DNA from: an uncultured Draconibacterium sp.
GTDB taxonomy: Bacteria; Bacteroidota; Bacteroidia; Bacteroidales; FEN-979
Length of the DNA stretch: 64,000 nt
Direction of reading: 5' to 3'
Assembly: GCA_964355945.1 (NCBI GenBank)
Contig: CAYHGE010000002.1
Location: 67,144 to 131,143 of the forward strand
The translations under genes and the position numbers were made by a program. Shown piece after piece: positions 21,105-62,028 of this stretch (within the stretch, counting starts at the first letter, position 1; the number at the start of each line of letters is the position of its first letter). The notes below the pieces were generated by a model. It was not told where the DNA came from. It searched no databases and saw nothing but the letters and a program-made list of their open reading frames with translations.

Positions 21105-21153
21105 CAAAATGCAAAATGCAAAATGCAAAATGCGACAGGCAAAATGCGAAACT
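21105..21153 (+). repeat. Heptamer tandem array: (CAAAATG)x4, CGACAGG, CAAAATG, CGAAACT
   Basis: Read directly from the sequence with an exact 7-bp period. It lies between the divergent korA and ferredoxin genes. Confidence 0.9.
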
Positions 21154-21199
21154 TAAGGTTAAAATATCACCTTCAGTTTTCGATATTCGGGAAAATATT

Positions 21200-21207
21200 T
21201 ATCTTTG
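21200..21207 (+). promoter_or_regulatory. Candidate -7 promoter box (TATCTTTG) for the ferredoxin gene
   Basis: Matches TAnnTTTG, 61 nt upstream of the ATG at 21268. Confidence 0.35.
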
Positions 21208-21267
21208 CGGCGAAAATCGCTTTATTCACTCGTCCCGGAGAAATGCGGGACATAAATTCAATAGGTC

Positions 21268-21435
21268 ATGGCTTATAAAATTAATGATGATTGCACTGCT
21301 TGTGGAACCTGCATCGATGAATGTCCGGTAGAAGCTATTGCTGAAGGTGATATCTATAAGATTGATCCTGAAGTATGCACTGATTGCGGAGCTTGTGCTG
21401 ATGTTTGCCCTGTAGAGGCAATCCATCCTGAATAA
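21268..21435 (+). CDS. 2x[4Fe-4S] clostridial-type ferredoxin (55 aa)
   Basis: Hand-translated as MAYKINDDCTACGTCIDECPVEAIAEGDIYKIDPEVCTDCGACADVCPVEAIHPE, with two CxxCxxCxxxCP motifs. It is below the ORF-track cutoff. Confidence 0.9.
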   Translation: MAYKINDDCTACGTCIDECPVEAIAEGDIYKIDPEVCTDCGACADVCPVEAIHPE

Positions 21436-21458
21436 TCAGGAAACAAATTGAATTATAA

Positions 21459-21497
21459 AAGCAGCAGCCCTGGCACCCGGGACTGCTGCTTTTTTTC
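21459..21497 (+). terminator. Intrinsic terminator after the ferredoxin gene
   Basis: Hairpin AGCAGCAGCCC...GGGACTGCTGCT followed by TTTTTTT. Confidence 0.75.
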
Positions 21498-21521
21498 GTA
21501 CATTGCTCTCAAATTATTTGC

Positions 21522-22283
21522 ATGCGCCAGAAAATTTATTTCGCTTCCGATTTTCATTTGGGAATTCCTGATCATGACAGCAGCCTGAAGCGTGAAAAGA
21601 AACTTGTTGCATGGCTGGAGATGGCACGAATGGATGCAGCGGAAATTTTCCTCATGGGGGATCTTTTTGATTTCTGGTTTGAATATAAAACAGCAGTCCC
21701 CCGAGGCTATGCAAGATTATTGGGGAAACTTGCCGAGATTACGGATTCAGCCATTCCTGTTCATCTGTTCAGAGGAAATCATGACATGTGGGCCTTTGAT
21801 TACCTCACTAAAGAGTTGAACATTCAGCTTCACAGGGAACCCGAATTTCGCACATTCAGTGGCAAAAATTTCTATCTCGCACATGGCGATGGCCTTGGCC
21901 CTGGTGACAATGGCTACAAATTTATTAAAAAGGTATTTGCCAACCCTTTCAATCAGTGGTTGTTTCGGCAGATTCACCCCGACATCGGAATCAGACTGGC
22001 GCTTTACTGGTCACGGAAAAGTCGCAGCGCCGGGATCGAAAAGGAGAAACAGCAACAGGATATAACACTGAAACTCATCCAGCAGCGGATCACGGTTCAT
22101 TCGAATGAGATGTTGAAGCAACACCCTGACCTGAATTATCTTATTTACGGACATTACCACTATCCGCTTGATTTAACTCTTTCCCCTAACACGAGGCAGT
22201 TAGTCCTTGGAGATTGGATAACCCATTTTACCTATGCCGTATTCGATGGCAAGGAACTTGAACTTAAAACCTTTGACAGGTAA
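21522..22283 (+). CDS. lpxH: UDP-2,3-diacylglucosamine diphosphatase (LpxH family metallophosphoesterase)
   Basis: 253-aa ORF with the motifs DFHLG, GDLFDFW, GNHD and GHYH. Confidence 0.75.
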   Translation: MRQKIYFASDFHLGIPDHDSSLKREKKLVAWLEMARMDAAEIFLMGDLFDFWFEYKTAVPRGYARLLGKLAEITDSAIPVHLFRGNHDMWAFDYLTKELNIQLHREPEFRTFSGKNFYLAHGDGLGPGDNGYKFIKKVFANPFNQWLFRQIHPDIGIRLALYWSRKSRSAGIEKEKQQQDITLKLIQQRITVHSNEMLKQHPDLNYLIYGHYHYPLDLTLSPNTRQLVLGDWITHFTYAVFDGKELELKTFDR

Positions 22284-22324
22284 AGGGTTTCGCTTAGTGT
22301 TGATCTGAACAGATGAGCAGGTGC

Positions 22325-23059
22325 TTACTTGTTTTTAACAGTTTTTCGCTGGTATTCCATTACGCGCTGATGGTGGAACATTACATGTTTGTTCGCGGGA
22401 AAACTGACGCTCAGGGTTGAGTCCAGGGCCTGATAGTAACGAAAATCCTCATCCATGTTGAGTACCGGACTCATGCCAAACGCATAGTTTAATACCACAA
22501 GTGAAGCAAGTGAACCGGAATGGTTCTTGATAAAGGCAATCTCAAGGGCCCGCTGGTTTTCCCAGATTTGCCTGAAAGAGGTGTCAAGCTTCTGGGTGAG
22601 ATTATAATAGTCTGAACTGTCCTGTCGTTCAGCAAGCAACATGTCAAGGGAGTCAACCATTCGCTCATTTGTCCGTGTCTGGTGAAAAAAATCGACCAGC
22701 AGCATGGCATCTTTTGGAGCCTTTACCCTGATGTTGTCGGGAAAATCGATGAAATTTCCTGAAAGATCAACCTGATCGCCGCTGTTAAGCATCAAGACCA
22801 GGATTTTTCCGGTTTGTGCTTTCAGCAGCCAGAAACCTGTTTCCTTAATTGCCGGGTTGAATGTGTGTTTCCCATTGTTATCAAATGTTGTTGAATCAAC
22901 CTGATGAATTTCACGGGTGTCCATCTCCAGCAGGATTAGTTTAACTCCGGCAGCTCCTGAAAAGTCACACGTGATCACTGCCATATCTTTCGCTGAGTGC
23001 TTGCAGGAAGTGAGTAGGAGTAATATTGCAAGGCTTGCAATTTCTATGTATTTAATCAT
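22325..23059 (-). CDS. Hypothetical lipoprotein
   Basis: The ATG at 23059 gives MIKYIEIASLAILLLLTSC, a signal peptide with a lipobox Cys. The track start at 23128 would overlap the upstream gene. I recognise no catalytic motif. Confidence 0.6.
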   Translation of the reverse strand: MIKYIEIASLAILLLLTSCKHSAKDMAVITCDFSGAAGVKLILLEMDTREIHQVDSTTFDNNGKHTFNPAIKETGFWLLKAQTGKILVLMLNSGDQVDLSGNFIDFPDNIRVKAPKDAMLLVDFFHQTRTNERMVDSLDMLLAERQDSSDYYNLTQKLDTSFRQIWENQRALEIAFIKNHSGSLASLVVLNYAFGMSPVLNMDEDFRYYQALDSTLSVSFPANKHVMFHHQRVMEYQRKTVKNK

Positions 23060-23124
23060 GGTTGAATTATTGTTATTTGTATTTCCTGATACGGTTATGA
23101 CCGGGTTTTTATTAAAACGGTGAA

Positions 23125-23850
23125 TCAAACGATTTGTACTGCATCCTCCGCCATTACAGGTTTGCCTTTAAACCGCAATAACAGGTTCACGATGGTTGCC
23201 ACATCCTTCTGACAGTAGGTAACGATGCGGGGGAGGTCATGCTCCTGCCAGTAAACCCTTGCTACATCGCTCCCTCTAATATCATCCTTTGGAGTTGGGA
23301 TGCCAAAAACGGCTGCCAGCAACTCCAGGGATGTATAGTTTTTGTAATCACCAAACTTCCACAACTCCATGGTGTCAAGATGGTTTACCTCCCAGGGTTT
23401 TTTTCCGGAAAGGTCCAGGATGGCAGGTACCTCCAGCCCGTTTATCAACATCCGGCGGATGAGGTAGGGATAGTCGAACTCCTTGCCATTGTGGGCACAC
23501 AGATAGTTTATGTGCTTCTCCCTGGCTTTGTTGAGCATTTCGTTGAAATTGGTCAGTAATTCAACCTCATCGTCTCCCCAAAAGGATTTGATCCATAACA
23601 CCCCGTTGCGCAGAATACCCGTGGAGATGCAAACGATTTTCCCGAATTCAGCATATATTCCAGCACGTTCATATACTTCTTCCGATTTTTGTGCATCATC
23701 TCCGCTGAATTTTTCAAACCGGGATAACTGGCTGGCTTTCTTTTCCCATAAGGAATGAAAATTTTCAGGCAGTTGGTTGAATGTTGAAAACTGAGGAACC
23801 GTTTCAATGTCAAGGAAAAGGATGTGTTCGATGTTGTAGTTGTCAAGCAT
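23125..23850 (-). CDS. 3'-5' exonuclease related to the exonuclease domain of family-B DNA polymerases
   Basis: 241-aa ORF with the DEDD-type opening LFLDIETVP and a later HNG..FD.P motif. Confidence 0.7.
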   Translation of the reverse strand: MLDNYNIEHILFLDIETVPQFSTFNQLPENFHSLWEKKASQLSRFEKFSGDDAQKSEEVYERAGIYAEFGKIVCISTGILRNGVLWIKSFWGDDEVELLTNFNEMLNKAREKHINYLCAHNGKEFDYPYLIRRMLINGLEVPAILDLSGKKPWEVNHLDTMELWKFGDYKNYTSLELLAAVFGIPTPKDDIRGSDVARVYWQEHDLPRIVTYCQKDVATIVNLLLRFKGKPVMAEDAVQIV

Positions 23851-24040: not shown

Positions 24041-24048
24041 TATATTTG
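24041..24048 (+). promoter_or_regulatory. Candidate -7 promoter box (TATATTTG)
   Basis: Matches TAnnTTTG, 19 nt upstream of the ATG at 24067. Confidence 0.4.
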
Positions 24049-24066
24049 TGTATCAATACTTCTGTC

Positions 24067-27761: not shown

Positions 27762-27796
27762 TGTTTGTTTGTTAGTTGCTTATTTTTTGTTAGCGG

Positions 27797-27852
27797 GTGA
27801 ACAGGTGAACAGGTAAACAGGTGAACAGGTAAACAGGTAAACACGTGAGCAT
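27797..27852 (+). repeat. Octamer tandem array: GTGAACAG x2, GTAAACAG, GTGAACAG, GTAAACAG, GTAAACAC, GTGAGCAT
   Basis: Exact 8-bp period read from the sequence. It lies between the rubrerythrin stop and the start of the E1 fusion gene. Confidence 0.9.
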
Positions 27853-27887
27853 ATAAACTGATCCGCATGTCCGCTTGTACGCTTGTT

Positions 27888-31806: not shown

Positions 31807-31827
31807 GTGACGGGTGACGGGTTGGGT
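31807..31827 (+). repeat. Short heptamer array: GTGACGG, GTGACGG, GTTGGGT
   Basis: 7-bp period immediately after the bcp stop. It overlaps the stop of the convergent 149-aa ORF. Confidence 0.65.
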
Positions 31828-32276: not shown

Positions 32277-32310
32277 TTAAATGTTTCTGGTAACAAATGT
32301 AGGTAAAAAA

Positions 32311-32358
32311 CAGGCGGACGGGCAGACAGGCGGACAGGTGGAGAGGCGGACGGAAAGT
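32311..32358 (+). repeat. Octamer tandem array: CAGGCGGA, CGGGCAGA, CAGGCGGA, CAGGTGGA, GAGGCGGA, CGGAAAGT
   Basis: Exact 8-bp period, filling the gap between two minus-strand genes. Its sequence is related to the array inside the activase CDS at 39927. Confidence 0.9.
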
Positions 32359-33678: not shown

Positions 33679-33720
33679 GAATATCGAATATTGAATAACG
33701 AATATTGACTGTTGAACTGG
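33679..33720 (+). repeat. Heptamer tandem array: GAATATC, GAATATT, GAATAAC, GAATATT, GACTGTT, GAACTGG
   Basis: Exact 7-bp period occupying the intercistronic gap between the beta and gamma subunit genes. Confidence 0.85.
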
Positions 33721-37471: not shown

Positions 37472-39679
37472 CTATCTGATCAGGACCACATTTCCGGTCA
37501 GGGTGGAATTTTCAGGTGGTGAAAGCGAGGACTGATATACAACGACAAAAACATAACTCCCTTCAGGGCATAACTCACCCTTCAGGGTGCCATCCCACCC
37601 GGGTTCGGGCTGTGTGGAAGTGAAAACCAGTTGGCCGGAACGATTGTAAATGTTCATGCTGTATTGCCTGATATTATTTGTAAAAGGTCGAAAGTTGTCA
37701 TTCAATCCATCTCCATTTGGGGTAAAAGCGTTGGGCAACCGGATCACGATTTCGCACTCCGTTCCGGTCTTAATGAAAATTGAAGTGCTGTCGGAGTTGT
37801 CACATCCATGGGAATCAGTATAACGATAAGAAATGAGGTGGTTTCCTGTTCCACTGATCAGCGGGTCTATACTTGCAGCGGCAGTACCATTGATCCTGTA
37901 TTCTCCTCCCGCCGGGTTTCCACCGGTGAGTACCAATGCGGGTTCATTGTAACAGATTGTGTCAAACGCTGCAAGGGATACCTGGGGTGGAGGATAGAAA
38001 AAGATTTGAAGTGCAGATTCCTGGCCGTCACCACAAGTGTTGGTTCCATAAACCGCCAGCGTTCCCGAGGTGGCGGATGTATCGAATGTGACCAGGGAAC
38101 TTGTGTCATTGGAAATAACAGTGGCACCCGTGCCTGAATAGGACCAGGTGTATGAAGAGGCACCGGGGTCGTGCCTGATGGTGTAAGTCATGGCAACTCC
38201 TCCTTCACAGAAAACATTGTTGCCGCTTATCTTCCCGGGCTGCCCGGGAATTCTTTTAACCTGGAAATTGAGGGACTGGGTAATGGACCTTGAAACATAC
38301 CACCAAGAATTGATTGTATTCGTATCACCGGTTTCGATATCCCACAAATGGCATCCGGTCAGGTCGGTACAGCCATTGAGGTTGGCAGAGATGACCCCGG
38401 GCAACAACCTGTCGTCCCAGTATATCTCTGGTTTTGGTCCCGGGGGCCTCACCACCTCCACGATATAACCATTGTCGTTGTATTCAATGTCATAGATCGG
38501 AAGATGGGTGATGCCGCGGATGAACCTGACTGTTGATCTGACTGTTACACCATTGGTCACCGGGTTCCCCAACCCGTCGTTCCCATTCCAGTGGATGATG
38601 TTATACCCATTTCCCCCTGGATTGGCCAGGATATTGGCTGTGAGTTTTACATCCCGAGGGTCCGCCCCGGGACCTGGAACAACTTCGACCAAAAGCTCAA
38701 TCAGTCCGTCGTGTGATACCCGCACCCCCAGGTCCACTGAACCGGTTGCACAATCGTTGGTTACCATGATTGGAAGGTTGATGCCCGGTTTTGCCCTTCC
38801 GGTAGGGAAAATTGTACTGTCGGGGTCTGTCAAAAAAACCTTGTATTGAGGATATGTGTGGAACCCGGTGTGTGATTGCCTGTCTGTGGCAATATTTCCG
38901 GTGGTTGAGCATCCTGTCTCATTGCTGGAAATAGAGAACGTCCCTCCGACAAACCCATTGCAGTTAACGCTTGTTACAATGCTGTCGTCAGACAGGATAT
39001 ATACAGTTCCAAAGAAGCGGCTGTCAGTCGGCGGAGGTTCCACCACTCCGCAATTAAATTGCCAGGCCTTTGACCATAAACGACCCGTTTTCGGCTTGCC
39101 GGAGGCATCCAGCACCGTTATATCAAAGAATTCAAACCTGACATACCTGCTCATGGAATAGGTGCCAGCCAGGTCGGGAGGGTAATAGAATTCGAGTGAA
39201 TAATTCCCGCGGATAGGAGAAGGATACTCAATGGGATTATACCCGTTGTCTGCCGGAAACGGACCGATTGTGTCCTGGTCATATGTGCTGATAAATCCCG
39301 GGCCTGATTTGGGAAGCTGAAATGGACCAAGCACAATATTGCCTGCAGGATCTCTTAACTGGAACTGAACAATTACGGTAGAATCAACCTGCAGGATTTT
39401 ACCCAGGCCAAAACAAATTTTTTCAGCCGGATCGGCGATGTAAATATTAATCCTGAATTCAGGACTGGCATTGAAGAACCCGAAATCGTTGCGTGACTTG
39501 TCAATACAGAGTTTCCCCTGTGCAGTATCAAAAGGTGCAACCTGTTTTGTTCCTTCTGAAAACCCGGCCAGGGAATGGAGGAGGAGCAAAAGAATGACAG
39601 AAAGCCAGATGTTAAAAAGGGGTTTCACTCCCTGTATAGCACTTGATTCCCAGTGATGAAAATTGTTGTTTGATTTCAT
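37472..39679 (-). CDS. Large secreted protein with a gliding-motility-type (T9SS type-B, CHU_C) C-terminal domain
   Basis: The C-terminus reads LPNAFTPNGDGLNDNF...YNRSGQLVF...WDG. The track start at 39844 is buried in the activase gene. Plausible starts are the ATG at 39679 or the GTG at 39628, which immediately precedes the signal peptide KPLFNIWLSVILLLLLHSLAG. Confidence 0.7.
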   Translation of the reverse strand: MKSNNNFHHWESSAIQGVKPLFNIWLSVILLLLLHSLAGFSEGTKQVAPFDTAQGKLCIDKSRNDFGFFNASPEFRINIYIADPAEKICFGLGKILQVDSTVIVQFQLRDPAGNIVLGPFQLPKSGPGFISTYDQDTIGPFPADNGYNPIEYPSPIRGNYSLEFYYPPDLAGTYSMSRYVRFEFFDITVLDASGKPKTGRLWSKAWQFNCGVVEPPPTDSRFFGTVYILSDDSIVTSVNCNGFVGGTFSISSNETGCSTTGNIATDRQSHTGFHTYPQYKVFLTDPDSTIFPTGRAKPGINLPIMVTNDCATGSVDLGVRVSHDGLIELLVEVVPGPGADPRDVKLTANILANPGGNGYNIIHWNGNDGLGNPVTNGVTVRSTVRFIRGITHLPIYDIEYNDNGYIVEVVRPPGPKPEIYWDDRLLPGVISANLNGCTDLTGCHLWDIETGDTNTINSWWYVSRSITQSLNFQVKRIPGQPGKISGNNVFCEGGVAMTYTIRHDPGASSYTWSYSGTGATVISNDTSSLVTFDTSATSGTLAVYGTNTCGDGQESALQIFFYPPPQVSLAAFDTICYNEPALVLTGGNPAGGEYRINGTAAASIDPLISGTGNHLISYRYTDSHGCDNSDSTSIFIKTGTECEIVIRLPNAFTPNGDGLNDNFRPFTNNIRQYSMNIYNRSGQLVFTSTQPEPGWDGTLKGELCPEGSYVFVVVYQSSLSPPENSTLTGNVVLIR

Positions 39680-40580
39680 GAAGATCTTCGGGTGACGGGA
39701 TGATAAAATCTTCTGTATAATATGTTTTACCGATGAGGTTGTATTTTTCTCTTCCAAGGTGATGAAGTGGAAGGATGTTGATCTCATTGCGCCCGGTTGA
39801 TTGAATAAAACGGGCGGTGGAAGAGATGTTGGCGGTATCATCATTAAATCCGGGGACTACAGGTAGTCTGAAAATCAGGCGTCCTGCAAATTCTCTGGCA
39901 ATTCGGCGGGCATTTTCAAGGATTAGGGGAACAGACGGACAAGCGGACATGTGGACGGGTGGACGGGCGGACAAAGTGGGTGAGTCTGTCATAGACTTCA
40001 AATCGAAAAATATCCAGTCGATATAGGGTAAGGATTTTTTTAAATTTTCCCAGGGAACATTGCCACAGGTTTCAACTGCTGTATGAATGTAGGCATCATG
40101 GCATGTTTTCAGGATATCAGATGCAAACTCCGGTTGCATAAATGGTTCTCCACCGGTAAGTGTAATTCCACCTCCGCTACCCCAGTATTGGCGGTCGCGT
40201 TTGATCCTGGCATACAGGTCTTCTGCAGAAATTTCATATCCTCCGATGTTAAGCGCCCCGGAACAACATGCTTTGGCACAATCGTGAGTCAGACAAAGTG
40301 CGCAAAACTTCCTGTCAAAGTGCAATTGATCACCTTCGATGTTGCAACTGGAGGATATTGCTCCTTTTGAACAAGCATGCATACACAAACCGTCGAATGT
40401 GCATTTTGAGAGGCGGTAAAGCGGCTCAGGAAAAAAGGAAATTCCTTCCGGGTTGGAACACCAGGAACATTCCAGTGAACAACCCTTGAAAAAAATTAAA
40501 GTACGGCAGCCGGGACCGTCATGAACAGAGAACCCCTGGATATCGAAAATAATGCCACTGCTCAGTTTTGATTGTTCCAT
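39612..40580 (-). CDS. Glycyl-radical enzyme activating enzyme (radical SAM) with an extra ferredoxin-like di-cluster insert
   Basis: The ATG at 40580 gives MEQSKLSSGIIFDIQGFSVHDGPGCRT. It has the motif CSLECSWC (CX3CX2C) plus CTFDGLCMHAC and CALCLTHDCAKACC. An octamer array is embedded in the coding sequence. Confidence 0.85.
   Translation of the reverse strand: MEQSKLSSGIIFDIQGFSVHDGPGCRTLIFFKGCSLECSWCSNPEGISFFPEPLYRLSKCTFDGLCMHACSKGAISSSCNIEGDQLHFDRKFCALCLTHDCAKACCSGALNIGGYEISAEDLYARIKRDRQYWGSGGGITLTGGEPFMQPEFASDILKTCHDAYIHTAVETCGNVPWENLKKSLPYIDWIFFDLKSMTDSPTLSARPPVHMSACPSVPLILENARRIAREFAGRLIFRLPVVPGFNDDTANISSTARFIQSTGRNEINILPLHHLGREKYNLIGKTYYTEDFIIPSPEDLHEIKQQFSSLGIKCYTGSETPF
39927..39982 (+). 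repeat. Octamer tandem array inside the activase CDS: GGGAACAG, ACGGACAA, GCGGACAT, GTGGACGG, GTGGACGG, GCGGACAA, AGTGGGTG
   Basis: GGAC recurs at 39937, 39945, 39953, 39961 and 39969, an exact 8-bp period. The array encodes DSPTLSARPPVHMSACPSVP on the minus strand. Confidence 0.85.
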
Positions 40581-40819
40581 TGAAAGTCGGCGCATTTGCT
40601 GGCGATCATGTCGGGATAGGCCAGGATGGTCCCCTGGCATTTCCCCAGGTACTCCTTTTCAGCTGTATAACTTTTACAGAACCTGCACTTGGGGATTTGT
40701 TTTCCTTTTTCACAAAGCGGTTTATCAGGACTGATTTTTTCCTTACTGAGTTTGCAAATCCCCCTGAAAACATCCACAGGCAGGTAATAGGTGCAATCTT
40801 TACAAAAGAGGTCTTCCAT
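40562..40819 (-). CDS. Small 8-Cys iron-sulfur subunit of a glycyl radical enzyme (HPAD gamma-subunit-like)
   Basis: 85-aa ORF with Cys at 6, 9, 22, 36 and 45, 48, 61, 76. It lies between the GRE and its activase and overlaps the activase start by 19 nt. Confidence 0.75.
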   Translation of the reverse strand: MEDLFCKDCTYYLPVDVFRGICKLSKEKISPDKPLCEKGKQIPKCRFCKSYTAEKEYLGKCQGTILAYPDMIASKCADFQWNNQN

Positions 40820-40841
40820 GATTCTATTATTGTTTGGTCAG

Positions 40842-43511
40842 CTAAAATTCCTCATATTCTGTTCTGGAAATCACTTCATCCTGGATCTGTTTTCCAAGTT
40901 CAACCCAGTACTGGGTAAATCCGGCAACGCGGACAAGCAAGCTCCTGTATTTATCCGGGTCGGCCTGTGCCTGCTTAAGCATCCGTGAATCGACGATGTT
41001 GAATTGCACGTGGAAGCCACCTTTACGAAGATAGGCACGGATCAGTTCCAGAAATTTCCGTGATCCTTCCCTGCCTCTGACAACGGAAGGATGGATCTTC
41101 ATGTTGAGTTGTGAATTCTGTGATTCGGCGTGGTTCCAGCACGTAGCAGAGTTAAACAGGGCATAAGGACCATTCTTGTCAGTGCCGGGATATGCTGAAA
41201 CGGATCCGTCCGAAAAAGTTGTGCCGCTTAACCGCCCGTCGGGGCCGGCCAATGTAACGGCCCCCATTGGTCCATGAGTGGATACAGATATCTGGCAGGC
41301 ATACATCGGCTGATCGTAGAGCGACCGGTAGTTATGTGCCATTTTACAGAACCACTCTTCCCATTCCTTAAGGATGTTATCAACAAATGGGTTGTCGTTA
41401 CCGAATTTAGGTGCATCTAGACTTTGCCGGTGGATTTTTTTCCAGAGATGATGGTCCTCGCCGGGAACCTGATCGATTAACGACCAGGAACCGGTTTCCT
41501 TCGCAGTTTTGTATCCGAAATTGGCCAGGATTGCCTTTCGGTATTCATCCAGGGTGTAATTATGCTCTGCAAAGATGTTTTTTTTCATCGAACCCAGTGA
41601 ATTTACCAGGTTCGTTGTACCACAGGTCTCGATATTGAAAGTTGTATTGTAGCGGCAGCCCATTTGCCCGATATCTTTTCCTTTTGTAAGGCAATCAGGC
41701 TTCAGCATTGAATTGACCAGAGAGGGGGAAATTTTCCGCCAGGCGTCATGCTGGATGTTGTTTGCCAGGGTCAGCACATGACAGGCCCGGCTGAAATAAT
41801 CCTTAAAGGCCTGCCAGATTTCGGCGTAATCATCCAGGTTATATCCATGCGGCGGAAAAATCCGTTGACCCGTTCGCATATCCATGCCATTGAAAATGAC
41901 AACTTCCAGTAATTTCGGAAGGTTCAGAAAGTGTACGCCAACGCTGGTGGCAGGAGCAGAACCTCCTGGTATCCAGTGAATTTCATTGTCAAGTTCAAGT
42001 GGCATCCAGCTGCCGGGAGATGTTTCAAGGCAGCCTCCTATTGCCCATGCGCGGGCCTCTTCGAGATGCAATCCCTCATGGCCATAGTTTCCAAGCAGAA
42101 ACTCCATTGCTACCTGGTTGTTAATCCATGCAGGGTAGCCGGTACCGGTTTTTGTACATTCGATACCTTTTAAAAGAAACTCTTCAGGAAGTTTTTCATC
42201 GTACAGGAGAGACAGTGTGGGTTGCGGGGTATCGCAGGTTATCCCGGCCTCAAGGATGAGAATTTCAAGATCATTGGCAGCAGATGTGCCATCTTTTAGC
42301 AGTCCGCCGAGACACAGGTTGTTGAATGTATTCCCGGAGAGGACTCCGCCAACCACGCCCATCGATGCAAAACAGTCTATTTCAGTGAATTTGATCCGCA
42401 TGCACTCCAGCAATTCGAGGGTTTTTTCGCGGTCGATCACGCCATTTTTCATATCACGTTGCCAGAATGGAAAGAGTACCTGACCTACACGGCCGGGGGA
42501 TAGCCCCGATATGGCATCTTCATTCAGGACTGCCACATGGAAGATCCACAGCATTTGCAATGCGTCATGAAAAGACCGGGGAGGCTTACAGGCGATCCAG
42601 GCAAGCCGTTCGGACATCTCCAGGTATTCAGTTTTTTGCCTGGCTTCAGTTTCGATCGATGCAAGAAAATCTGCTTCTGCTGCATAATTTTCAATCCAAT
42701 GTTTGATGCCTTCAAGTGTGATGATAACAGCGTTGTAGAAATAGATGCGGTCCATGTCAGGATATCCGGCCACTTCTGCAATTCTGTCATGGCAGCTTTG
42801 GATTATCCCATCGATACCAAACTGAAGCGGATAATAATAGTTCATAACCTCCCGCCCCTGCGGAAGTGTATAGCCGGAATCGAACATGCAGATTACCGAG
42901 CGCATCAGTGCTTCCTTTTCCTTGTAACCGGGAACAAGCTGCTCATATTTGTGGCCTACATCGTCAACCGATTTGTTTTTCCATTTTTTTGCCACTTCCA
43001 GCATGGCAGGCAGTTCTTCCAGTCGTAACCCGAATTTTCCGGCGATGGATATCACATTGCCAGCACTCTTTGTGACATTGCCTCCTCCTTTGCCCATGGT
43101 CGTAAAACTGTCGGCGGTGAGCTTTCCGGATTCCTGGGCCTCTTTGTAAAGGTCATCCTCGGCAGCCATGAAAAACGCTTCCGACAGCCAGGGCATGGGG
43201 TAGGAGCCGCGGAGATAGGATGCTTTGCCCATGGTTAGCAGTTCGCCGGGATAAATTACCGGGGTAAGATGTTCAAAACCAGCTTTCAATGCCTCTGCAC
43301 GCCGGACAATTGGTATTTCTCCATCCAGGGCCTCCCATCGACGGGTGTACCAATATGGAAATTCTATGGAAACCGAGGATTTGGCTTCAAAGTAAAGTTC
43401 TCTGGCTGCATGAGCCCTGGATGTTGGCTGTCGTTTGCTCCCGCAGGATGTGACCTCGCCGTCGGGCTTGTTGCCGTAATAGTTGATATGAGTCTGGGCC
43501 GTGGTGTTCAT
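40842..43511 (-). CDS. Glycyl radical enzyme, 4-hydroxyphenylacetate (arylacetate) decarboxylase-like large subunit
   Basis: 889-aa ORF with the glycyl motif LLVRVAGFTQYW near the C-terminus and the thiyl loop AIGGCLETS. Confidence 0.85.
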   Translation of the reverse strand: MNTTAQTHINYYGNKPDGEVTSCGSKRQPTSRAHAARELYFEAKSSVSIEFPYWYTRRWEALDGEIPIVRRAEALKAGFEHLTPVIYPGELLTMGKASYLRGSYPMPWLSEAFFMAAEDDLYKEAQESGKLTADSFTTMGKGGGNVTKSAGNVISIAGKFGLRLEELPAMLEVAKKWKNKSVDDVGHKYEQLVPGYKEKEALMRSVICMFDSGYTLPQGREVMNYYYPLQFGIDGIIQSCHDRIAEVAGYPDMDRIYFYNAVIITLEGIKHWIENYAAEADFLASIETEARQKTEYLEMSERLAWIACKPPRSFHDALQMLWIFHVAVLNEDAISGLSPGRVGQVLFPFWQRDMKNGVIDREKTLELLECMRIKFTEIDCFASMGVVGGVLSGNTFNNLCLGGLLKDGTSAANDLEILILEAGITCDTPQPTLSLLYDEKLPEEFLLKGIECTKTGTGYPAWINNQVAMEFLLGNYGHEGLHLEEARAWAIGGCLETSPGSWMPLELDNEIHWIPGGSAPATSVGVHFLNLPKLLEVVIFNGMDMRTGQRIFPPHGYNLDDYAEIWQAFKDYFSRACHVLTLANNIQHDAWRKISPSLVNSMLKPDCLTKGKDIGQMGCRYNTTFNIETCGTTNLVNSLGSMKKNIFAEHNYTLDEYRKAILANFGYKTAKETGSWSLIDQVPGEDHHLWKKIHRQSLDAPKFGNDNPFVDNILKEWEEWFCKMAHNYRSLYDQPMYACQISVSTHGPMGAVTLAGPDGRLSGTTFSDGSVSAYPGTDKNGPYALFNSATCWNHAESQNSQLNMKIHPSVVRGREGSRKFLELIRAYLRKGGFHVQFNIVDSRMLKQAQADPDKYRSLLVRVAGFTQYWVELGKQIQDEVISRTEYEEF

Positions 43512-44381: not shown

Positions 44382-44420
44382 GGGATTTTACAGAACAATA
44401 TGACGGCGGGAAATGGGGAT

Positions 44421-44455
44421 AAAACCTTCCAGGTTTTTAAAACCTGGAAGGTTTC
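44421..44455 (-). terminator. Probable intrinsic terminator after the YqgE/AlgH gene
   Basis: 14-bp perfect stem (44422-44435 pairing with 44441-44454) with a 5-nt loop, followed on the - strand by TTTTAT. Confidence 0.6.
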
Positions 44456-51680: not shown

Positions 51681-51774
51681 AGGTATGGTGAAGAAATAAA
51701 TTATGACGAAAAAGTTATCAATAGCTTAAAGGTGAATTGTTAATTGGTTGTCGAATACAGGCGGACTGGCGCAC

Positions 51775-53370: not shown

Positions 53371-53415
53371 AATAAGTGTTAAGTGATTAAGTGTTAAGTT
53401 TTAAGTGCACTAAGG
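53371..53415 (+). repeat. 7/8-bp tandem array built on TTAAGTG: AATAAGTG, TTAAGTGA, TTAAGTG, TTAAGTT, TTAAGTG, CACTAAGG
   Basis: Read directly from the sequence. It fills the gap between the purD stop and the start of the downstream membrane protein gene. Confidence 0.8.
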
Positions 53416-54703: not shown

Positions 54704-54705
54704 TG

Positions 54706-58525: not shown

Positions 58526-58540
58526 AATAAAATCCAATAT

Positions 58541-59506
58541 ATGGACAGTTTTTTCAGCAGTAAAAATATTATTGATGTCGTACTTAAGTGGAAGATTCAG
58601 CTTGTTGTTGTCATTATTGCCGCAATCCTCCTTTCTGCCTTGTTTTCAAGTCCGATATTCATTACACCTCTTTATAAATCCACTTGTCTGCTTTATCCAT
58701 CCAATGTTTCTCCTTATTCCGATGAAAGCGAAACAGAGCAAAGTGTCGAAATTTTCCAATCCAGGGATATCAGAGATTCTTTAGTGAAACAGTTTAACCT
58801 GGCAAAACACTGGGAACTGGACTCAGCCTACAAGCATTTTGAAAGCACACTTAGCTGGATTTATAGTCAACGGGTACATGTCAACAAAACACCCTTTGAA
58901 GCCGTTGAAATTGAGATTCTTGATAAGGATCCAATGATGGCGCGCGACCTGATCAATGCCATGCTTGATGCTTACAACAAAAAGATCAGGGCAATGCACA
59001 AACAGAAATTCGGCGAGGTTGTCTCCAACTACAACTATATCATGGGCGTGAAGAAGGTTTATATGGACTCTTTGAAAACCAGAACACAGGAACTTGGAAT
59101 GAAATATGGAATTCTTCAGTATGAAGCACAAACCCGCGAAGTGATGCGCGCATACCTGAGTACCGGCGGAGGTTCTGTCCGTTCGGCCGAGGCAAAGGCG
59201 ATGAAGAAAAACCTGGAAGAAAATGGTGGTGAAATGCTGGTACTCGGTGAAATGATCAAGTCCGAATCAGGTACATTCAGTGCGATGAAACTGGATGCAG
59301 ATCGTGCCCTGCTGGATTACAACCGGGAATATACTTATGTGAATGTACTTAGCAAGCCTTTTGTTGCCGACAAAAAGGCCTATCCCATCCGCTGGCTTAT
59401 TGTGGTATTCAGCACCCTGGCTGCCTTCTTTATGGCTGTTCTGATCATTGGATTGATTGAACGTGGCAAATTCCGCAGCCTGTCAACAGATGGCAATGAT
59501 GGTTAA
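58541..59506 (+). CDS. Chain-length-determinant (Wzz-like) protein, paralog 2
   Basis: 321-aa ORF with the same architecture and clear similarity to paralog 1 (SSPIFITPLYKST / YPIRWLIVVFSTLAAFFMAVLIIGLIE). Confidence 0.7.
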   Translation: MDSFFSSKNIIDVVLKWKIQLVVVIIAAILLSALFSSPIFITPLYKSTCLLYPSNVSPYSDESETEQSVEIFQSRDIRDSLVKQFNLAKHWELDSAYKHFESTLSWIYSQRVHVNKTPFEAVEIEILDKDPMMARDLINAMLDAYNKKIRAMHKQKFGEVVSNYNYIMGVKKVYMDSLKTRTQELGMKYGILQYEAQTREVMRAYLSTGGGSVRSAEAKAMKKNLEENGGEMLVLGEMIKSESGTFSAMKLDADRALLDYNREYTYVNVLSKPFVADKKAYPIRWLIVVFSTLAAFFMAVLIIGLIERGKFRSLSTDGNDG

Positions 59507-60974
59507 ACTTGCAGAAATAAAAAGCTACCTTACCGGAAGCAATCAAAGGATTACCATCCTTTATATGCTGAGTGCGATATTTATTGGATTGAATTGCTAT
59601 CTGATTTTCCGGGATATCTATTGGTTGCTTTTTTTTCCTCTCTTTCTGATAATACTTTACCTCTATTTTTATTCACTTGACAAGGTACTGTTGCTGATTA
59701 CGGCGCTGACCCCGGTTGCCATTAACATTACTCAGTTTGAATTTAACGTTGGCGTATCGATGCCTTCAGAACCAATGATGCTGGGAGTTTTGTTGATCTT
59801 TATCATCAAATTATTTTATAGCAACGAGGTTGAGAAAAAAATATGGGGTCATCCATTAACAATTGTGATTGGTCTCCAACTGATGTGGATGCTGATCACA
59901 AGCATGACCAGTGATTTGCCACTTGTGTCCTTCAAACATTTGCTTGCACGCCTCTGGTTTGTCGTTCCTTTCTTTATCCTTGGAATCCAACTTTTTCGTA
60001 AAAGGTCGAATATCAGGCTTTTCATTTGGTTTTACACGATCCCTCTAATTGGCGTGATCGCATATACCACCTACAATCACTCATTGTGGGGATTTGATGA
60101 GAAGGCCGGCCATTGGGTTATGGAACCTTTTTACAATGACCATACCGCTTATGGTGTGATTTTAGCACTCTATATTCCGATATTTTTTGGGTTCACTTTC
60201 AGTAAGGTCTATTCAAAGACAACCCGGTTTTTCTCATTCCTGGTACTTGCCATATTGCTGATGGCGCTCGTTCTTTCTTACAGTCGAGCTGCATGGATCA
60301 GCCTTGCATTTGCGGTAGGTGTGCTGTTTATTGTTCTCTTCAAAATTAAATTCAAATGGATCCTTTTTGTTTCAACCATTTTTGGTATTCTTTTTTATCT
60401 GTTTTCATTTCAGATACTTGACCGTCTTGAGAAAAACCGGCAAGGTCCATCAGCCAATTTCGTTGAGCACCTCCGATCCATTTTAAATATTTCAACGGAT
60501 AATTCCAACCTTGAACGCATTAACCGCTGGCAATCTGCATTAAGGATGTTCGAAGACAGGCCGGTATTCGGTTATGGTCCGGGAACATACCAGTTTGAAT
60601 ATGCACCTTTCCAGCGAGCCAAAGAGAAGACACTGATCAGTACAAATGCTGGCGACAAAGGAAACGCTCACAGCGAGTATATAGGCCCACTTGCTGAGCA
60701 GGGATTGCCCGGGATGATACTGGTGTTTGTTTTGATAGGAACATTCATTGTGGCGGCCATGCGTGTGTACCGGAATTCCATCGATCCGGAAGTCAAAATG
60801 CTGAGTCTCTCACTCATGCTGGCACTGCTAACCTACTTTATGCACGGAACCATGAATAATTTCCTGGATACGGATAAAGCATCTGTTCCGGTTTGGGGAT
60901 TTATGGCAGCCATTGTTGCACTCGATATTTATTCGGGAGAAGGTAAGGTTGCTGACATTAAACGTGACACGTGA
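59490..60974 (+). CDS. O-antigen ligase/polymerase family membrane protein (Wzy_C-like)
   Basis: Polytopic ORF with a large loop containing YSRAAWISL and HSEYI. The start is uncertain: ATGs at 59490, 59496 and 59499 all overlap the preceding stop. Its stop codon lies inside a heptamer array. Confidence 0.7.
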   Translation: MAMMVKLAEIKSYLTGSNQRITILYMLSAIFIGLNCYLIFRDIYWLLFFPLFLIILYLYFYSLDKVLLLITALTPVAINITQFEFNVGVSMPSEPMMLGVLLIFIIKLFYSNEVEKKIWGHPLTIVIGLQLMWMLITSMTSDLPLVSFKHLLARLWFVVPFFILGIQLFRKRSNIRLFIWFYTIPLIGVIAYTTYNHSLWGFDEKAGHWVMEPFYNDHTAYGVILALYIPIFFGFTFSKVYSKTTRFFSFLVLAILLMALVLSYSRAAWISLAFAVGVLFIVLFKIKFKWILFVSTIFGILFYLFSFQILDRLEKNRQGPSANFVEHLRSILNISTDNSNLERINRWQSALRMFEDRPVFGYGPGTYQFEYAPFQRAKEKTLISTNAGDKGNAHSEYIGPLAEQGLPGMILVFVLIGTFIVAAMRVYRNSIDPEVKMLSLSLMLALLTYFMHGTMNNFLDTDKASVPVWGFMAAIVALDIYSGEGKVADIKRDT

Positions 60975-60998
60975 CAGGTGACCGGTGACAGGTGAGAG
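60964..60998 (+). repeat. Heptamer tandem array: GTGACAC, GTGACAG, GTGACCG, GTGACAG, GTGAGAG
   Basis: Exact 7-bp period. It covers the last codons and the TGA stop of the wzy-like gene. Confidence 0.9.
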
Positions 60999-61028
60999 TT
61001 GTCTTATCTCTTGGGTGAAATATAGAAA

Positions 61029-61958
61029 CTATCTTAATTTGCTAAGAATATCCGGGAGCATCTTCAGTGCTGCGACTTCACGCCATTTTTTCCTTGCTTC
61101 TATTGCCGGCACGCCCCAATATGTTTTGCCTCCTTCAAGTGACTTTTCTGTGCCTGAACCTGCAAGTACCACAGCACCTTTACCGATTACCAGGTCTTTA
61201 TTAACCAAAACACTTGCCCAGAGTATTACATCATCTTCGATCCTGGTTACACCGGCAATGGCGCAAAATGCTCCAATAAGGCAATTTTTCCCGATATAGG
61301 TATCGTGACCAACCTGAACATGGTTGTCAAATTTAGTCCCGCGTGAAATGACGGTATCGCCCGAAACGCCTTTGTCTATGGTCGTATTTGCCCCGATTTC
61401 AACATGATCTTCAAGTACTGCCCGACCACAGGACTCCAGTTTCTTATAACCATCAGGCCGTTTCTGGTAATAGTAGGCATCTGCTCCTATAACTGCCCCT
61501 GAATGTATGATTACATGGTTTCCAATAACCGAATGGTCGTAAATGCTGGCATTGGCATGGATAATACAGTTTTCACCGATTGTTACATGGTTTCCGACAA
61601 AAGCCCCTGGCTGAATTACAGTTCCATTTCCGATTACTGCGCTTGGACTGACTGCAGAGACAGCCTTTTCAAACGGTCGGAAATGGATGGCAAGTGAAAC
61701 ATAGTCGTCGAACGGCTTTTCGCTGATAAGCAGTGTTTTCCCTGGTGGACACTCCACCTCTTTGTTGATGATAATTGTCGTGGCATTTGAATCCAATGCT
61801 TTCGAATAATATTTTGGATGATCAACAAATGTGAGGTCACCGGCTTCGACCATGTGGATCTCATTCATCCCTGTTACCAGGAAATCAGAATCACCAACAG
61901 GCTTTGCCTTCAGGATTGCGGCAATCTCAGACAACTTTAGTGCAGAAGGAAATTTCAT
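61029..61958 (-). CDS. lpxD: UDP-3-O-acylglucosamine N-acyltransferase
   Basis: 309-aa ORF with an LpxD-type N-terminal domain followed by left-handed beta-helix hexapeptide repeats. Confidence 0.82.
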   Translation of the reverse strand: MKFPSALKLSEIAAILKAKPVGDSDFLVTGMNEIHMVEAGDLTFVDHPKYYSKALDSNATTIIINKEVECPPGKTLLISEKPFDDYVSLAIHFRPFEKAVSAVSPSAVIGNGTVIQPGAFVGNHVTIGENCIIHANASIYDHSVIGNHVIIHSGAVIGADAYYYQKRPDGYKKLESCGRAVLEDHVEIGANTTIDKGVSGDTVISRGTKFDNHVQVGHDTYIGKNCLIGAFCAIAGVTRIEDDVILWASVLVNKDLVIGKGAVVLAGSGTEKSLEGGKTYWGVPAIEARKKWREVAALKMLPDILSKLR

Positions 61959-62000
61959 TTATCAGAATTTAATTCACAAAACACAGCCCAAATGCAACAG

Positions 62001-62028
62001 TATTCGATATTCAATATTCGATATTCTA
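62001..62028 (+). repeat. Heptamer tandem array: TATTCGA, TATTCAA, TATTCGA, TATTCTA (reverse complement of the GAATATY unit at 33679)
   Basis: Exact 7-bp period between the efp stop, which it overlaps, and the lpxD start. Confidence 0.85.

Follow-up and report, generated by a model that had tools for sequence, protein, structure and literature searches.

Results

The window, a 64,000-nucleotide stretch of a contig from an uncultured Draconibacterium sp., carries short tandem arrays of 7- or 8-bp units, for which we relied on Tandem Repeats Finder together with direct reading of the sequence; every array named in an initial annotation was recovered in place. (CAAAATG)n at 21100–21151 (period 7, 7.3 copies) sits in a divergent spacer, which is bounded by a POR-family oxidoreductase gene on the minus strand (start at 21063/21072) and by a plus-strand gene for a small ferredoxin (21268–21435); its minus-strand reading is (CATTTTG)n, 28–37 nt upstream of the start codon. 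An (GTGAACAG/GTAAACAG)n array at 27796–27858 (period 8, 6.6 copies) decays into a second 8-mer array, (CGCWTGTM)n, at 27864–27886, and the two occupy 91 nt of the gap of approximately 126–129 nt that separates the stop codon of a rubrerythrin gene from the start of an E1-dehydrogenase-like gene, both on the minus strand. A gene of 149 aa has such a site on either side: (GTGACGG)2.3 at 31807–31822 (period 7, only 2.3 copies) within the 22-nt convergent gap shared with an AhpC/Prx gene, and (CAGGCGGA)n at 32310–32351 (period 8, 5.2 imperfect copies) between the stop codon of a DUF2400 gene and the start of the 149-aa gene, these last two genes being on the minus strand.

The (GAATATY)n array at 33679–33712 (33679–33705 according to Tandem Repeats Finder, with period 7 and 3.9 copies) is effectively composed of a 14-nt super-unit, GAATATCGAATATT. 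It fills the space between two cistrons of a 2-oxoacid:ferredoxin oxidoreductase operon, those for the beta (TPP_enzyme_C) and gamma (POR) subunits, here named korB and korG. Its counterpart is (TATTCGA)n at 62001–62026 (period 7, 3.7 copies), which abuts the EF-P stop codon and has the lpxD start 43 nt downstream. The two are reverse complements, as had been noticed initially, with 27 of 29 positions identical and the order of unit variants included, and they are oppositely oriented relative to transcription. (GTGACAG)n at 60964–60995 (period 7, 4.6 copies) lies in the gap where a Wzy_C gene and lpxD converge, and it takes in the last three codons of the Wzy_C gene and its TGA stop (60972–60974). 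(TTAAGTG)n at 53373–53407 (period 7, 4.9 copies, one indel) lies in the spacer that follows the purD stop codon and precedes the start of a DUF6427-family gene, the two genes being on the minus strand; the sense-strand reading is (CACTTAA)n, and the unit is also found at two non-orthologous sites in L088. The possible two-unit remnant, CAGGCGGA CTGGCGCA, is present at 51758–51773, adjoining the RNase HII stop codon; by itself it is indistinguishable from chance, and it was absent from the matches of a unit-pair search at no more than two mismatches.

Within the arrays of the window, variants read directly are mostly transitions (Y/R positions). Degeneration toward one end, initially ascribed to each array, is clear for three or four of the nine (those listed at 21105, 27797 and 33679), the others being evenly imperfect. 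Similarly, arrays that were thought nearly to fill their gaps make up approximately 30–75% of their spacers, and comparison with orthologues shows that the extra spacer length was largely created by the arrays.

One array lies inside a coding sequence, that of a glycyl-radical-enzyme activating enzyme (39612–40580, minus strand). It is too imperfect for Tandem Repeats Finder, and its six 8-nt units at 39927–39975 (minus strand; GYGGACRR on the plus strand and YYGTCCRC on the sense strand) are plain by direct reading. The 48 nt are in frame and encode TLSARPPVHMSACPSV in a loop of the enzyme, a peptide predicted to be coil with a pLDDT below 50. Both flanking motifs could be located in 101 homologues, of which 64 have the canonical loop length of 17 residues; in 21 of the 37 that bear inserts, the insert length is a multiple of 8 residues (24 nt), where chance predicts 1/8. 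The DNA of the loop shows the same 8-nt periodicity in L086 (AACTTACC, 11 units at 92% match) and L084 (CCGTCCGC, 17 units) as in the 6 units of the window.

The arrays are far more frequent than expected by chance. We counted 7 arrays in the window that have a 7- or 8-bp period and three or more copies, as compared with a mean of 0.21 (maximum 2) in 100 whole-window dinucleotide shuffles; when intergenic segments alone were considered, 8 were seen against 0.03 (maximum 1 of 200 shuffles). None occurs in the ribosomal protein cluster, as had been pointed out, and this absence is a weak observation, given that the cluster has only 978 intergenic bases over 25 mostly tiny gaps, where the density in the remainder of the window would predict approximately 2.4 arrays.

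Such arrays mark a whole clade of uncultured Bacteroidota, the nearest named relative of which is a Prolixibacteraceae MAG. In 221 kb of clade sequence, sampled around two anchor genes, 45 of 56 short-period arrays had period 7 (28) or period 8 (17), and the other periods from 4 to 15 contributed 11 together; periods 6 and 9 were almost absent, with no period-6 array in the 221 kb. With genes called by ORF heuristics, the density per kb was 1.7 in tandem gaps, 2.0 in convergent gaps, 0.5 in divergent gaps and 0.05 in coding sequence, as compared with 0.13–0.24 per kb of intergenic sequence in other Bacteroidota. This approximately six- to eight-fold higher density speaks for the earlier suggestion of a process specific to this lineage, whereas the excess of period-7 arrays across Bacteroidota generally, approximately ten times above chance, speaks against it. 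Arrays occupy tandem and convergent spacers, and less often divergent ones, in either orientation, and many lie 0–45 nt from start codons. Neither the sense-strand composition nor the predicted RNA structure of the arrays showed a common trend of the kind expected from one RNA-level role.

The units belong to a small number of families. GGCGGACA, GTGA(A)CAG, GAATATC, CACTTAA and TAAATCG recur at non-orthologous loci and across genomes. Among the 34 arrays that remained after orthologous sites were collapsed, 7 pairs had identical units versus 0.44 expected (maximum 4 in 1000 trials), and 25 pairs differed by one edit versus 9.3 expected (maximum 20), under a null in which the letters of each unit are permuted without regard to dinucleotide bias; the related groups of units perceived in the window are, therefore, confirmed statistically. 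Clade sequence (226 kb) contained 8 two-copy GGCGGACA sites with no more than two mismatches, 2.15 Mb from outside the clade contained none, and GTGAACAG, CACTTAA and AATGAGTG showed a similar restriction to the clade. Single copies of the units were not enriched outside arrays. Because four-fold sites are only 33–43% identical between clade members, the sharing of unit families across loci and genomes with saturated synonymous sites points to a sequence-specific constraint, for which independent neutral slippage is insufficient. Conservation of unit families across genomes had not been anticipated by the initial annotation; it argues against the arrays being mere footprints of slippage.

Orthologous spacers keep an array while its copy number, and sometimes its unit family, changes. 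The korB–korG gap, 35–117 nt from the korB stop to the korG start, contains arrays in 9/9 relatives compared, with units counted by eye as 4–7 copies of CGATTTA and 4–8 copies of GCTNCTTC. The core of the array at 33679 is 25/26 identical in L090, where the four-fold sites are only 37% identical. Between relatives, there is no conservation of the arrays in the gaps at 27797 and 31807: the former gap is approximately 126–129 nt in the window and 43–75 nt in relatives with shorter arrays or none, and the latter holds (GGCGGACA)4 in L087 and (CGTGACG)3 in L113. The array types of the kor gap do not fit a neighbour-joining (NJ) tree of five flanking proteins, in which the window clusters with genomes carrying TAAATCG arrays, although its GAATATY array is shared with L090, a more distant genome. 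Such a distribution cannot be explained by simple vertical descent with slippage.

Discussion

These observations support what was first proposed: the arrays are neither CRISPRs nor hairpin terminators, and they make up a dispersed family that fills spacers with related 7/8-bp units. An origin by chance or misassembly might be entertained, as repeats can be mis-resolved by short-read assemblers and three of the Logan contigs stop within the 27797 array. It is refuted for practical purposes by the 7–8 arrays observed versus 0.03–0.21 in shuffles, by orthologous arrays in related MAGs and metagenome contigs, and by identical arrays in independent assemblies from several runs and assemblers. Unit numbers are the same in contigs from ERZ4201064, ERZ27280190, ERR3856787, ERR3856788, ERR3997378 and SRR24858483, which represent at least five samples; they changed neither in assemblies that are 99.7–100% identical nor in a strain of 97.7% identity, counted among these six, which has 113 substitutions over 4.9 kb. 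The arrays are, therefore, neither artefacts nor hypervariable, and the recombination or slippage hotspot once envisaged is not seen on short time scales. The same constancy makes it very improbable that they are contingency loci, at which frequent changes in a phase-variable unit number turn adjacent genes on or off. Host-adapted pathogens do use tandem repeats of their promoters and leaders in this manner, the activity of the cholera toxin promoter is affected by its TTTTGAT heptads (bioRxiv 10.1101/2021.05.14.444153), and some arrays here lie upstream of start codons. However, the arrays are short and imperfect, convergent gaps are populated equally, the neighbouring genes have housekeeping roles (oxidoreductases, purD, efp, lpxD) and the coding array stays in frame; the arrays are not phase-variation switches.

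A possible, if rather unlikely, alternative is that the arrays are multi-site binding platforms made and kept by selection for binding, each unit family being the motif of a clade-specific DNA- or RNA-binding protein through which the arrays would control translation, termination, the stability of mRNA or the local structure of the chromosome. One candidate would be a protein of cold-shock-domain or S1 type, with a footprint of 6–7 nt, as MacGregor proposed for TAACTGA arrays, for which the same case is made (PMC4679880). Conservation of unit families despite saturated synonymous sites, the proximity of many arrays to start codons and the conserved kor-gap array directly upstream of one within an operon are in keeping with this idea, and a leader could matter in other ways where Shine-Dalgarno pairing is absent, as in Bacteroidetes (PMC7797042). 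Against it, a given unit can face either way with respect to transcription (33679 and 62001; 14531 and 20176 in L003), convergent 3' gaps are as densely occupied as 5' gaps, and the same units appear within a protein-coding loop. At least 5–7 unit families would require several factors, close relatives switch family in orthologous gaps, single units are not enriched outside arrays, and there is no common signature of strand composition or structure. We regard as improbable the opposite proposal, that each array is a neutral by-product of independent slippage of a local 7–8-mer, tolerated outside coding sequence and decaying by point mutation, with units that nothing recognises. The occupation of all spacer types in both orientations, the preponderance of transitions, the non-conservation of the 27797 and 31807 arrays and the heptamer excess, which extends to other Bacteroidota loci and is general in prokaryotes (Mrazek et al. 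2007, as related in PMC4679880 and PMC4692102), are all in line with it. This neutral reading is already strained by unit sharing between non-orthologous loci far above the null, by the clade specificity of the families and by conservation in the kor gap (25/26 where four-fold sites are 37% identical), and the 14-nt super-unit with the same variant order at two loci of the window also speaks against it.

The reading that we favour, with a probability of roughly 0.6, is that the arrays are an STRR-like simple-sequence family, the head-to-tail 7/8-bp units of which come from a small repertoire shared by the clade and are shaped by slippage or exchange together with a sequence-specific agent. Whole units would be gained and lost by replication slippage or unequal exchange, 7–8-nt loops being thought largely to escape mismatch repair, which is inefficient on loops of more than 3 nt (PMC4060949). 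Array copy number differs between species in orthologous gaps; no slippage event was observed directly, and since close strains show the same copy numbers, its rate must be low for short imperfect arrays. Selection would remove arrays that break reading frames, leaving survivors in spacers or, in multiples of 3 × 8 nt, in a permissive protein loop. The repertoire may be held constant by a factor that binds double-stranded DNA, proposed because of the orientation independence, or by replication or repair machinery that is biased toward particular units, and ectopic conversion within a family of arrays may assist. The korB–korG array, at least, may now be a constrained part of an mRNA leader in bacteria that lack Shine-Dalgarno sequences.

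The heptanucleotide STRR sequences of cyanobacteria remain the right analogy, and we found no better one. The initial annotation knew of no equivalent description for Bacteroidota; one exists in part, in that MacGregor (2015) reported intergenic TAACTGA arrays and "larger assemblages of heptamer repeats" in five Bacteroidetes, namely, Flexibacter litoralis, Paludibacter, Gramella forsetii, Aequorivita sublithincola and Elizabethkingia anophelis (PMC4679880). Heptanucleotide repeats are the most abundant class of long simple sequences in many prokaryotes, and polymerase slippage has been suggested as the cause, according to the accounts of Mrazek et al. (2007) in PMC4679880 and PMC4692102. A prokaryotic heptamer excess and heptamer assemblages in a few Bacteroidetes were, thus, known already; the present arrays belong to this class of simple-sequence repeats, and their units are maintained from one species to another.

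Arrays in the window and their excess over chance

The initial annotation had listed nine arrays of 7- or 8-bp units in the window, and all of them exist where it had placed them. Tandem Repeats Finder (TRF) recovered period-7 arrays at 21100–21151 (7.3 copies), 33679–33705 (3.9 copies), 53373–53407 (4.9 copies), 60964–60995 (4.6 copies) and 62001–62026 (3.7 copies), together with one at 31807–31822 that has only 2.3 copies. Period-8 arrays were recovered at 27796–27858 (6.6 copies), where a further 8-mer array follows at 27864–27886, and at 32310–32351 (5.2 copies). The array at 39927 is too imperfect for TRF detection, and direct reading identified it as six 8-nt units. As judged by TRF and by direct reading, the units are contiguous, head-to-tail and without spacers. 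CRISPR, with repeats of about 24–48 nt and unique spacers, is ruled out by contiguous units of only 7–8 nt.

Arrays of period 7 or 8 with at least three copies numbered 7 in the window, as compared with a mean of 0.21 (maximum 2) in 100 dinucleotide-preserving shuffles. When the intergenic segments of the window were considered alone, 8 arrays were found versus 0.03 in shuffles (maximum 1 of 200). The array frequency is thus above the shuffled-sequence level, as had been proposed, and a chance origin is ruled out for the whole window and for intergenic DNA only. Six other assemblies or runs yielded contigs 97.7–100% identical to the window in which the arrays are present with the same unit numbers, which eliminates the possibility of an assembly artefact. 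Three Logan short-read contigs (L162, L164 and L165) stop within the (GTGAACAG)n array, at window positions 27809–27814, indicating that assemblies built from k-mers are broken up by the arrays; MacGregor made the same remark about Elizabethkingia.

Other properties ascribed to the arrays held only in part. Decay toward one end is clear in three or four of the nine arrays and not in the others. The arrays had been described as nearly filling their gaps, but each occupies only about 30–75% of its own spacer. The ribosomal-protein region is indeed devoid of arrays, which carries little weight because its intergenic DNA amounts to no more than 978 bases, spread over 25 gaps that are mostly tiny. 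TRF also reported a period-18 'repeat' (TAAAACCTGCAAGGTTTT) at 44420–44454 that is in fact palindromic: it corresponds to an AAAACC..GGTTTT hairpin in the spacer separating two genes on the minus strand, has no relation to the arrays and is likely to be a terminator.

Genomic setting

The window belongs to an uncultured bacterium of the Bacteroidota. The genomes closest to it are syntenic Bacteroidota MAGs of about 75% nucleotide identity, one of which is labelled Prolixibacteraceae. The neighbours of the arrays are housekeeping genes: those for 2-oxoacid:ferredoxin oxidoreductases, rubrerythrin, peroxiredoxins, RNase HII and a Wzy-type polymerase, as well as purD, efp and lpxD. Same-strand spacers hold arrays 27797, 32311, 33679, 53371 and 62001 (named by their starts in the initial annotation), convergent gaps hold 31807 and 60964, and a divergent gap holds 21105. 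The Wzy_C gene stops on a TGA inside the (GTGACAG)n array (60964–60974), and array 62001 lies immediately next to the stop codon of EF-P. The divergent spacer that holds the (CAAAATG)n array also contains, at 21175–21195, a GAATATC-family remnant of two units (TTTTCGATATTCGGG).

Reading by eye, we noted matches to TAnnTTTG, the Bacteroidetes −7 promoter motif, just downstream of arrays 21105 and 32311 on the minus strand; these are TACCTTTG (21076–21100) and TACATTTG (32277–32310), respectively. Each (CATTTTG)n unit of array 21105 supplies a TTTG resembling the −33 element. ARAGORN detected no tRNA or tmRNA in the window, and an Rfam search of the whole window, including the 15-kb ribosomal-protein gene cluster, gave nothing at gathering score, which rules out tRNA and known structured RNA families as candidates. 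Ribosomal-protein leader families might have been expected in that cluster, where Rfam had no match.

Distribution beyond the window

The clade set consisted of the window plus relatives at 58% or higher identity in the activating enzyme described below, 221 kb in all. Period 7 accounted for 28 arrays in this set and period 8 for 17, while the other periods between 4 and 15 contributed 11 in all, none of them of period 6. The corresponding numbers in 1.46 Mb of other Bacteroidota were 40 for period 7 and 11 for period 8, together with 26 for period 6 and 22 for period 9. Loci at 55% identity or less (694 kb) contained 13 period-7 and 7 period-8 arrays, and many of these loci lacked any array of either period. 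The clade density was 1.7 arrays per kb in tandem gaps, 2.0 in convergent gaps, 0.5 in divergent gaps and 0.05 in coding sequence, versus 0.215, 0.241, 0.131 and 0.015, respectively, in other Bacteroidota. Most of the coding-sequence calls in the clade fall within one protein loop, that of the activating enzyme.

In a Prolixibacteraceae MAG (L003), a 350-nt spacer at 19864–20210 is made up entirely of successive different arrays, namely (GGCCGTG) x 18, (AAATTCA) x 4.6, (AGGCAAT) x 4.4, a TCAGTCAA/TCAGTTAA run, (GGTGAGCA) x 3 and (ATTCACTC) x 4. The TCAGTTA-type units of this spacer resemble the reverse complement of MacGregor's TAACTGA. Among the Flavobacteriia loci L025, L038, L075 and L018, some that come from cultured or named organisms have 4 heptamer arrays in 20 kb, as in Tamlana sp. 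2_MG-2023 (L025) and Sinomicrobium sp. N-1-3-6 (L075). The unit AAGTCGA occurs in L038 at two loci 20 kb apart and in opposite orientation. These array-bearing Flavobacteriia could serve as experimental systems.

A shared repertoire of units

The 49 clade arrays include 22 pairs with identical units versus 1.2 expected, and 52 pairs that differ by one edit versus 17.4 expected. When all orthologous sites were collapsed, the remaining 34 arrays still formed 7 identical pairs versus 0.44 expected (maximum 4 of 1000) and 25 one-edit pairs versus 9.3 expected (maximum 20). The same unit is repeated at separate loci of one genome, as seen for GAATATC (twice in the window), AAAATTC and AATGAGTG (each twice in L003), AAGAATG (two loci in L092) and AAGTCGA (two loci in L038). 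Units are also shared by non-orthologous sites of different genomes, CACTTAA by the window and L088 and CGAATAT by the window and L084. The two GAATATY arrays of the window are identical at 27 of 29 positions in reverse complement, with the variants in equal order, and thus correspond to a 14-nt super-unit, GAATATCGAATATT.

Probes of two units, searched with 1–2 mismatches in 226 kb of clade sequence and 2.15 Mb from elsewhere, gave 8 clade sites for GGCGGACA, 4 for GTGAACAG, and 3 each for CACTTAA and AATGAGTG, versus none elsewhere for any of the four. Single unit copies outside arrays were not enriched, being at or below shuffle expectation, which rules out the idea that the arrays are built from an abundant single-copy motif.

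Orthologous spacers

All clade members examined have an array in the spacer between korB and korG, which encode the beta (TPP_enzyme_C) and gamma (POR) subunits of a 2-oxoacid:ferredoxin oxidoreductase. The gaps measure 35–117 nt from the korB stop to the korG start, and the unit family differs among genomes: GAATATY in the window and L090, 4–8 x GCTNCTTC followed by 4–7 x CGATTTA (counted by eye) in L002, L087, L089 and L113, a CGATTTA-type array only in L091, TTTGAAT/TTTGACA in L003, and AATTGTGA in L092. The sequence AAATCG(T/A)AAATCGAA is kept directly before the ATG in the L002 group. The korB gene is 822 nt long in L087 versus 798 nt in L002, L113 and L089 because an (GAAGCAGC)n array is read through (L087 8612–8650).

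In the window the rubrerythrin gap spans 129 nt and contains (GTGAACAG) x 6. The gap is shorter in the relatives, at 75 nt in L113, where the units are TTTGTCA/GTGTCAC, 74 nt in L092, which lacks an array there, and 43 nt in L002, whose TNGTCAT array has decayed. At the convergent ahpC gap, the window has two copies of GTGACGG, L087 four of GGCGGACA and L113 three of CGTGACG. From these comparisons of orthologous gaps, we conclude that the extra spacer length is made by arrays, that copy number varies between species, and that the unit family at one site can switch.

Four-fold degenerate sites of korB and korG are only 33–43% identical between clade members, that is, saturated, and despite this the core of the kor-gap array is identical at 25 of 26 positions between the window and L090. 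In a neighbour-joining tree built from five flanking proteins, the window falls among genomes that have TAAATCG arrays, and L090 falls outside them. Simple vertical inheritance of the array type does not fit this tree, which is star-like and weak and hence no proof of transfer. Concerted evolution alone would maintain similarity among copies of one genome while letting the family consensus drift between genomes; the consensus has not drifted, from which we infer a sequence-specific constraint. The constraint could come from a factor that reads the units and for which there is selection, or from a process of biased change or copying that is specific to certain units.

An array within a coding sequence

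The array at 39927–39975 resides within the gene (39612–40580, minus strand) for a glycyl-radical-enzyme activating enzyme. Its six 8-nt units add up to 48 nt, so that the frame is kept, and the sense strand translates to TLSARPPVHMSACPSV. The conserved H..T..N loop motif of the enzyme has been lost to the array in the window. Flanking motifs allowed loop length to be measured in 101 of the best 120 homologues. The canonical loop of 17 residues (H..x..T..x..N) is present in 64 of the 101, and the other 37 have inserts, the lengths of which peak at +8 and +16; in 21 of the 37 the length is a multiple of 8 residues (24 nt), versus 1/8 by chance.

The loop DNA of relatives is plainly 8-nt periodic, with units that differ between loci: (AACTTACC) x 11 in L086 (92% match), (CCGTCCGC) x 17 in L084, TCCGCCTG in L083, L087 and L089, TTTCACAA in L113 and CAAACTTC in L116. 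The distant relative L109 (29% GC) has a canonical 17-residue loop and carries its array elsewhere. In the AlphaFold model of the activating enzyme, which is of moderate confidence overall (mean pLDDT 68), the array peptide is modelled as coil that links a strand to a helix, and residues 200–214 have pLDDT values under 50. The pattern suggests that an 8-nt array in an insertion-tolerant loop is subject to frame selection.

The activating enzyme belongs to a glycyl-radical enzyme operon at 39612–43511 (minus strand) that also encodes a PFL-like enzyme (40842–43511) and a small subunit (40562–40819), the latter with weak 4HPAD_g_N/HPIP_like matches in relatives; the operon looks like a 4-hydroxyphenylacetate-decarboxylase-type system. 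A gene for a 790-aa PKD_6 / CHU_C (type IX secretion signal) protein (37472–39844, minus strand) lies between the activating enzyme and aminotransferase genes. This stretch has no BLAST match to L002, from which the gene is probably absent, and there is a homologue in the same place in L084/L085. About 230 nt at the 3′ end of the activating-enzyme gene are also covered by the longest open reading frame of the PKD_6 / CHU_C gene, so that gene probably begins downstream of the start of this frame.

Discussion

The analysis adds to the initial annotation a clade-level enrichment, a sharp 7/8 period spectrum, a coding array that changes in 24-nt quanta, arrays that persist at orthologous spacers, and a conserved unit repertoire. 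The arrays belong to a known class, that of STRR (short tandemly repeated repetitive)-like simple-sequence arrays, which favour a period near 7. Array length probably changes by slippage, with filtering by reading frame, a view that is well supported although it is reached indirectly. Assemblies that are 97.7–100% identical agree in their unit numbers; between species the numbers vary, both at orthologous gaps and within the protein loop. In a strain with 113 substitutions in 4.9 kb, the arrays are identical. Phase variation is ruled out by this lack of copy-number polymorphism among strains and assemblies.

Could the arrays act through RNA? One unit is found in both orientations relative to transcription, and convergent gaps are as rich in arrays as 5′ gaps. 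The idea that the arrays are unstructured linkers was rejected; 72 strand-specific folds gave a mean z of −0.17 against composition-matched sequence, with 54% above 0 and no trend, and the predicted folding was neither weaker nor stronger than that of shuffles. Sites of the cold-shock-protein or Rho type call for a pyrimidine-rich or G-poor sense strand, and the composition of 24 tandem-gap arrays is mixed, with no consistent bias. Taken together, the two orientations, the rich convergent gaps, the mixed sense-strand composition and the shuffle-like folding are difficult to reconcile with a single RNA-level function. That dedicated binding factors read the units seems rather unlikely.

A more far-reaching interpretation, to which we assign a probability of roughly one in five, is that the clade possesses an undescribed sequence-directed system, in which a small set of 7–8-nt 'words' is introduced as tandem copies in spacers and even within a protein loop. 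The words are GGCGGACA, GTGA(A)CAG, GAATATC/GAATATT, CACTTAA, TAAATCG and AATGAGTG; they are constant across species with saturated neutral sites and interchangeable at one spacer. One could envision two versions of such a system. In one, dedicated nucleic-acid-binding factors may read the words as a cis-regulatory or chromosome-organising code; a role of this kind has been suggested, not demonstrated, for the cyanobacterial STRRs. In the other, a templated or unit-specific repeat-adding or conversion process may make the arrays and copy them between loci, and if this is true, then the mismatch between kor-gap array type and flanking-gene tree would be its footprint. That mismatch and the near-identical arrays at two window loci would be the signs of such copying.

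Heptamer-type arrays (STRRs, long simple-sequence repeats, TAACTGA) have been catalogued for decades, and we know of no established function or generating mechanism for them. If the arrays described here are only slippage debris, they are a tidy but ordinary case of a known class. The clade offers three handles that earlier descriptions lacked. Its repertoire is conserved where neutral sites are saturated, which implies something sequence-specific; the operon-internal korB|korG spacer combines an array in all relatives examined with strong conservation and family switching; and the enzyme loop, where growth proceeds in 24-nt quanta, provides a natural record of how units are gained and lost while the frame is under selection. 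The arrays are also of practical concern for the annotation of Bacteroidota MAGs, since they break short-read assemblies, shift stop codons (Wzy_C, L087 korB) and add low-complexity peptides.

Comparison with known systems

Like the STRRs of Calothrix and Nostoc, the arrays are numerous, short and head-to-tail, with a period of about 7 and no spacers; they are mostly intergenic, lie in either orientation, and draw on a few unit families over many loci and related species. They differ from STRRs in residing in Bacteroidota rather than heterocystous cyanobacteria, in that 8-bp units approach 7-bp units in abundance in the clade (17 versus 28), and in being short (mostly 3–8 copies in the window, up to 18 in L003), with one site that is coding. 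The STRR units CCCCAGT, TTGGTCA and CAACAGT were not found in tandem in the window or any fetched locus.

According to the accounts given in PMC4679880 and PMC4692102, Mrazek, Guo & Shah (2007) found heptanucleotides to be the most abundant class of long simple sequences in most prokaryotic genomes and proposed that a length of about 7 nt corresponds to the stretch of DNA gripped by the polymerase, which would make slippage more likely. Mismatch repair is good on loops of 1–3 nt and poor on longer ones (PMC4060949). The arrays share with prokaryotic long simple sequence repeats (5–11-nt units) a length beyond chance, period 7 as the commonest, the exclusion from coding DNA of units that are not multiples of 3 (0.05 versus 1.7–2.0 per kb in the clade), and the proposed origin by polymerase slippage with weak mismatch repair of long loops. 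That class is a statistical one with no claim of a conserved repertoire, whereas the units here are shared between loci and between genomes saturated at neutral sites, and the reading frame across the coding 8-mer array is preserved through steps of 24 nt.

TAACTGA arrays occur in marine Beggiatoaceae, some Cyanobacteria and five Bacteroidetes (MacGregor 2015, PMC4679880), and the TAACTGA spacers of Gramella, Aequorivita and Elizabethkingia also hold 'other heptamer direct repeats', with contigs ending in arrays (PMC4679880). The mixed-heptamer spacer of L003 (19864–20210) parallels these. Both systems have intergenic heptamer arrays that are often near start codons, single copies uncorrelated with arrays, and frequent contig breaks. 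Unlike the TAACTGA system, the arrays here have no dominant unit and no forward-orientation bias, convergent gaps are equally populated, and octamers are common. TAACTGA itself occurs as nine single copies in the window and was not found in tandem in the window or any fetched locus. Our literature search returned no report of heptamer repeats in Bacteroidetes or Flavobacteria beyond those cited here.

The G-rich heptamer arrays of Xanthomonas and Nostoc (GGGAATC / GGGGAYT) vary between related species (Rehm et al. 2015, PMC4692102). The present arrays are likewise lineage-enriched, intergenic and located between the same genes in relatives, with length and sequence that vary by species. The G-tracts of those repeats can form G-quadruplexes, whereas the units here are without runs of three or more G, and neither GGGAATC nor GGGGATT was found in tandem in any fetched locus. 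Among all fetched loci, TTTTGAT, the heptad of the Vibrio cholerae ctxAB promoter, was found in tandem once only, in the unrelated locus L008. The arrays resemble contingency loci and such promoter heptads in being short tandem units beside genes, with heptad periodicity in a promoter. In contrast to contingency loci, they show no copy-number polymorphism among strains, have housekeeping genes as neighbours, occupy the 3′ side of genes in convergent gaps, and include a coding array that is maintained in frame.
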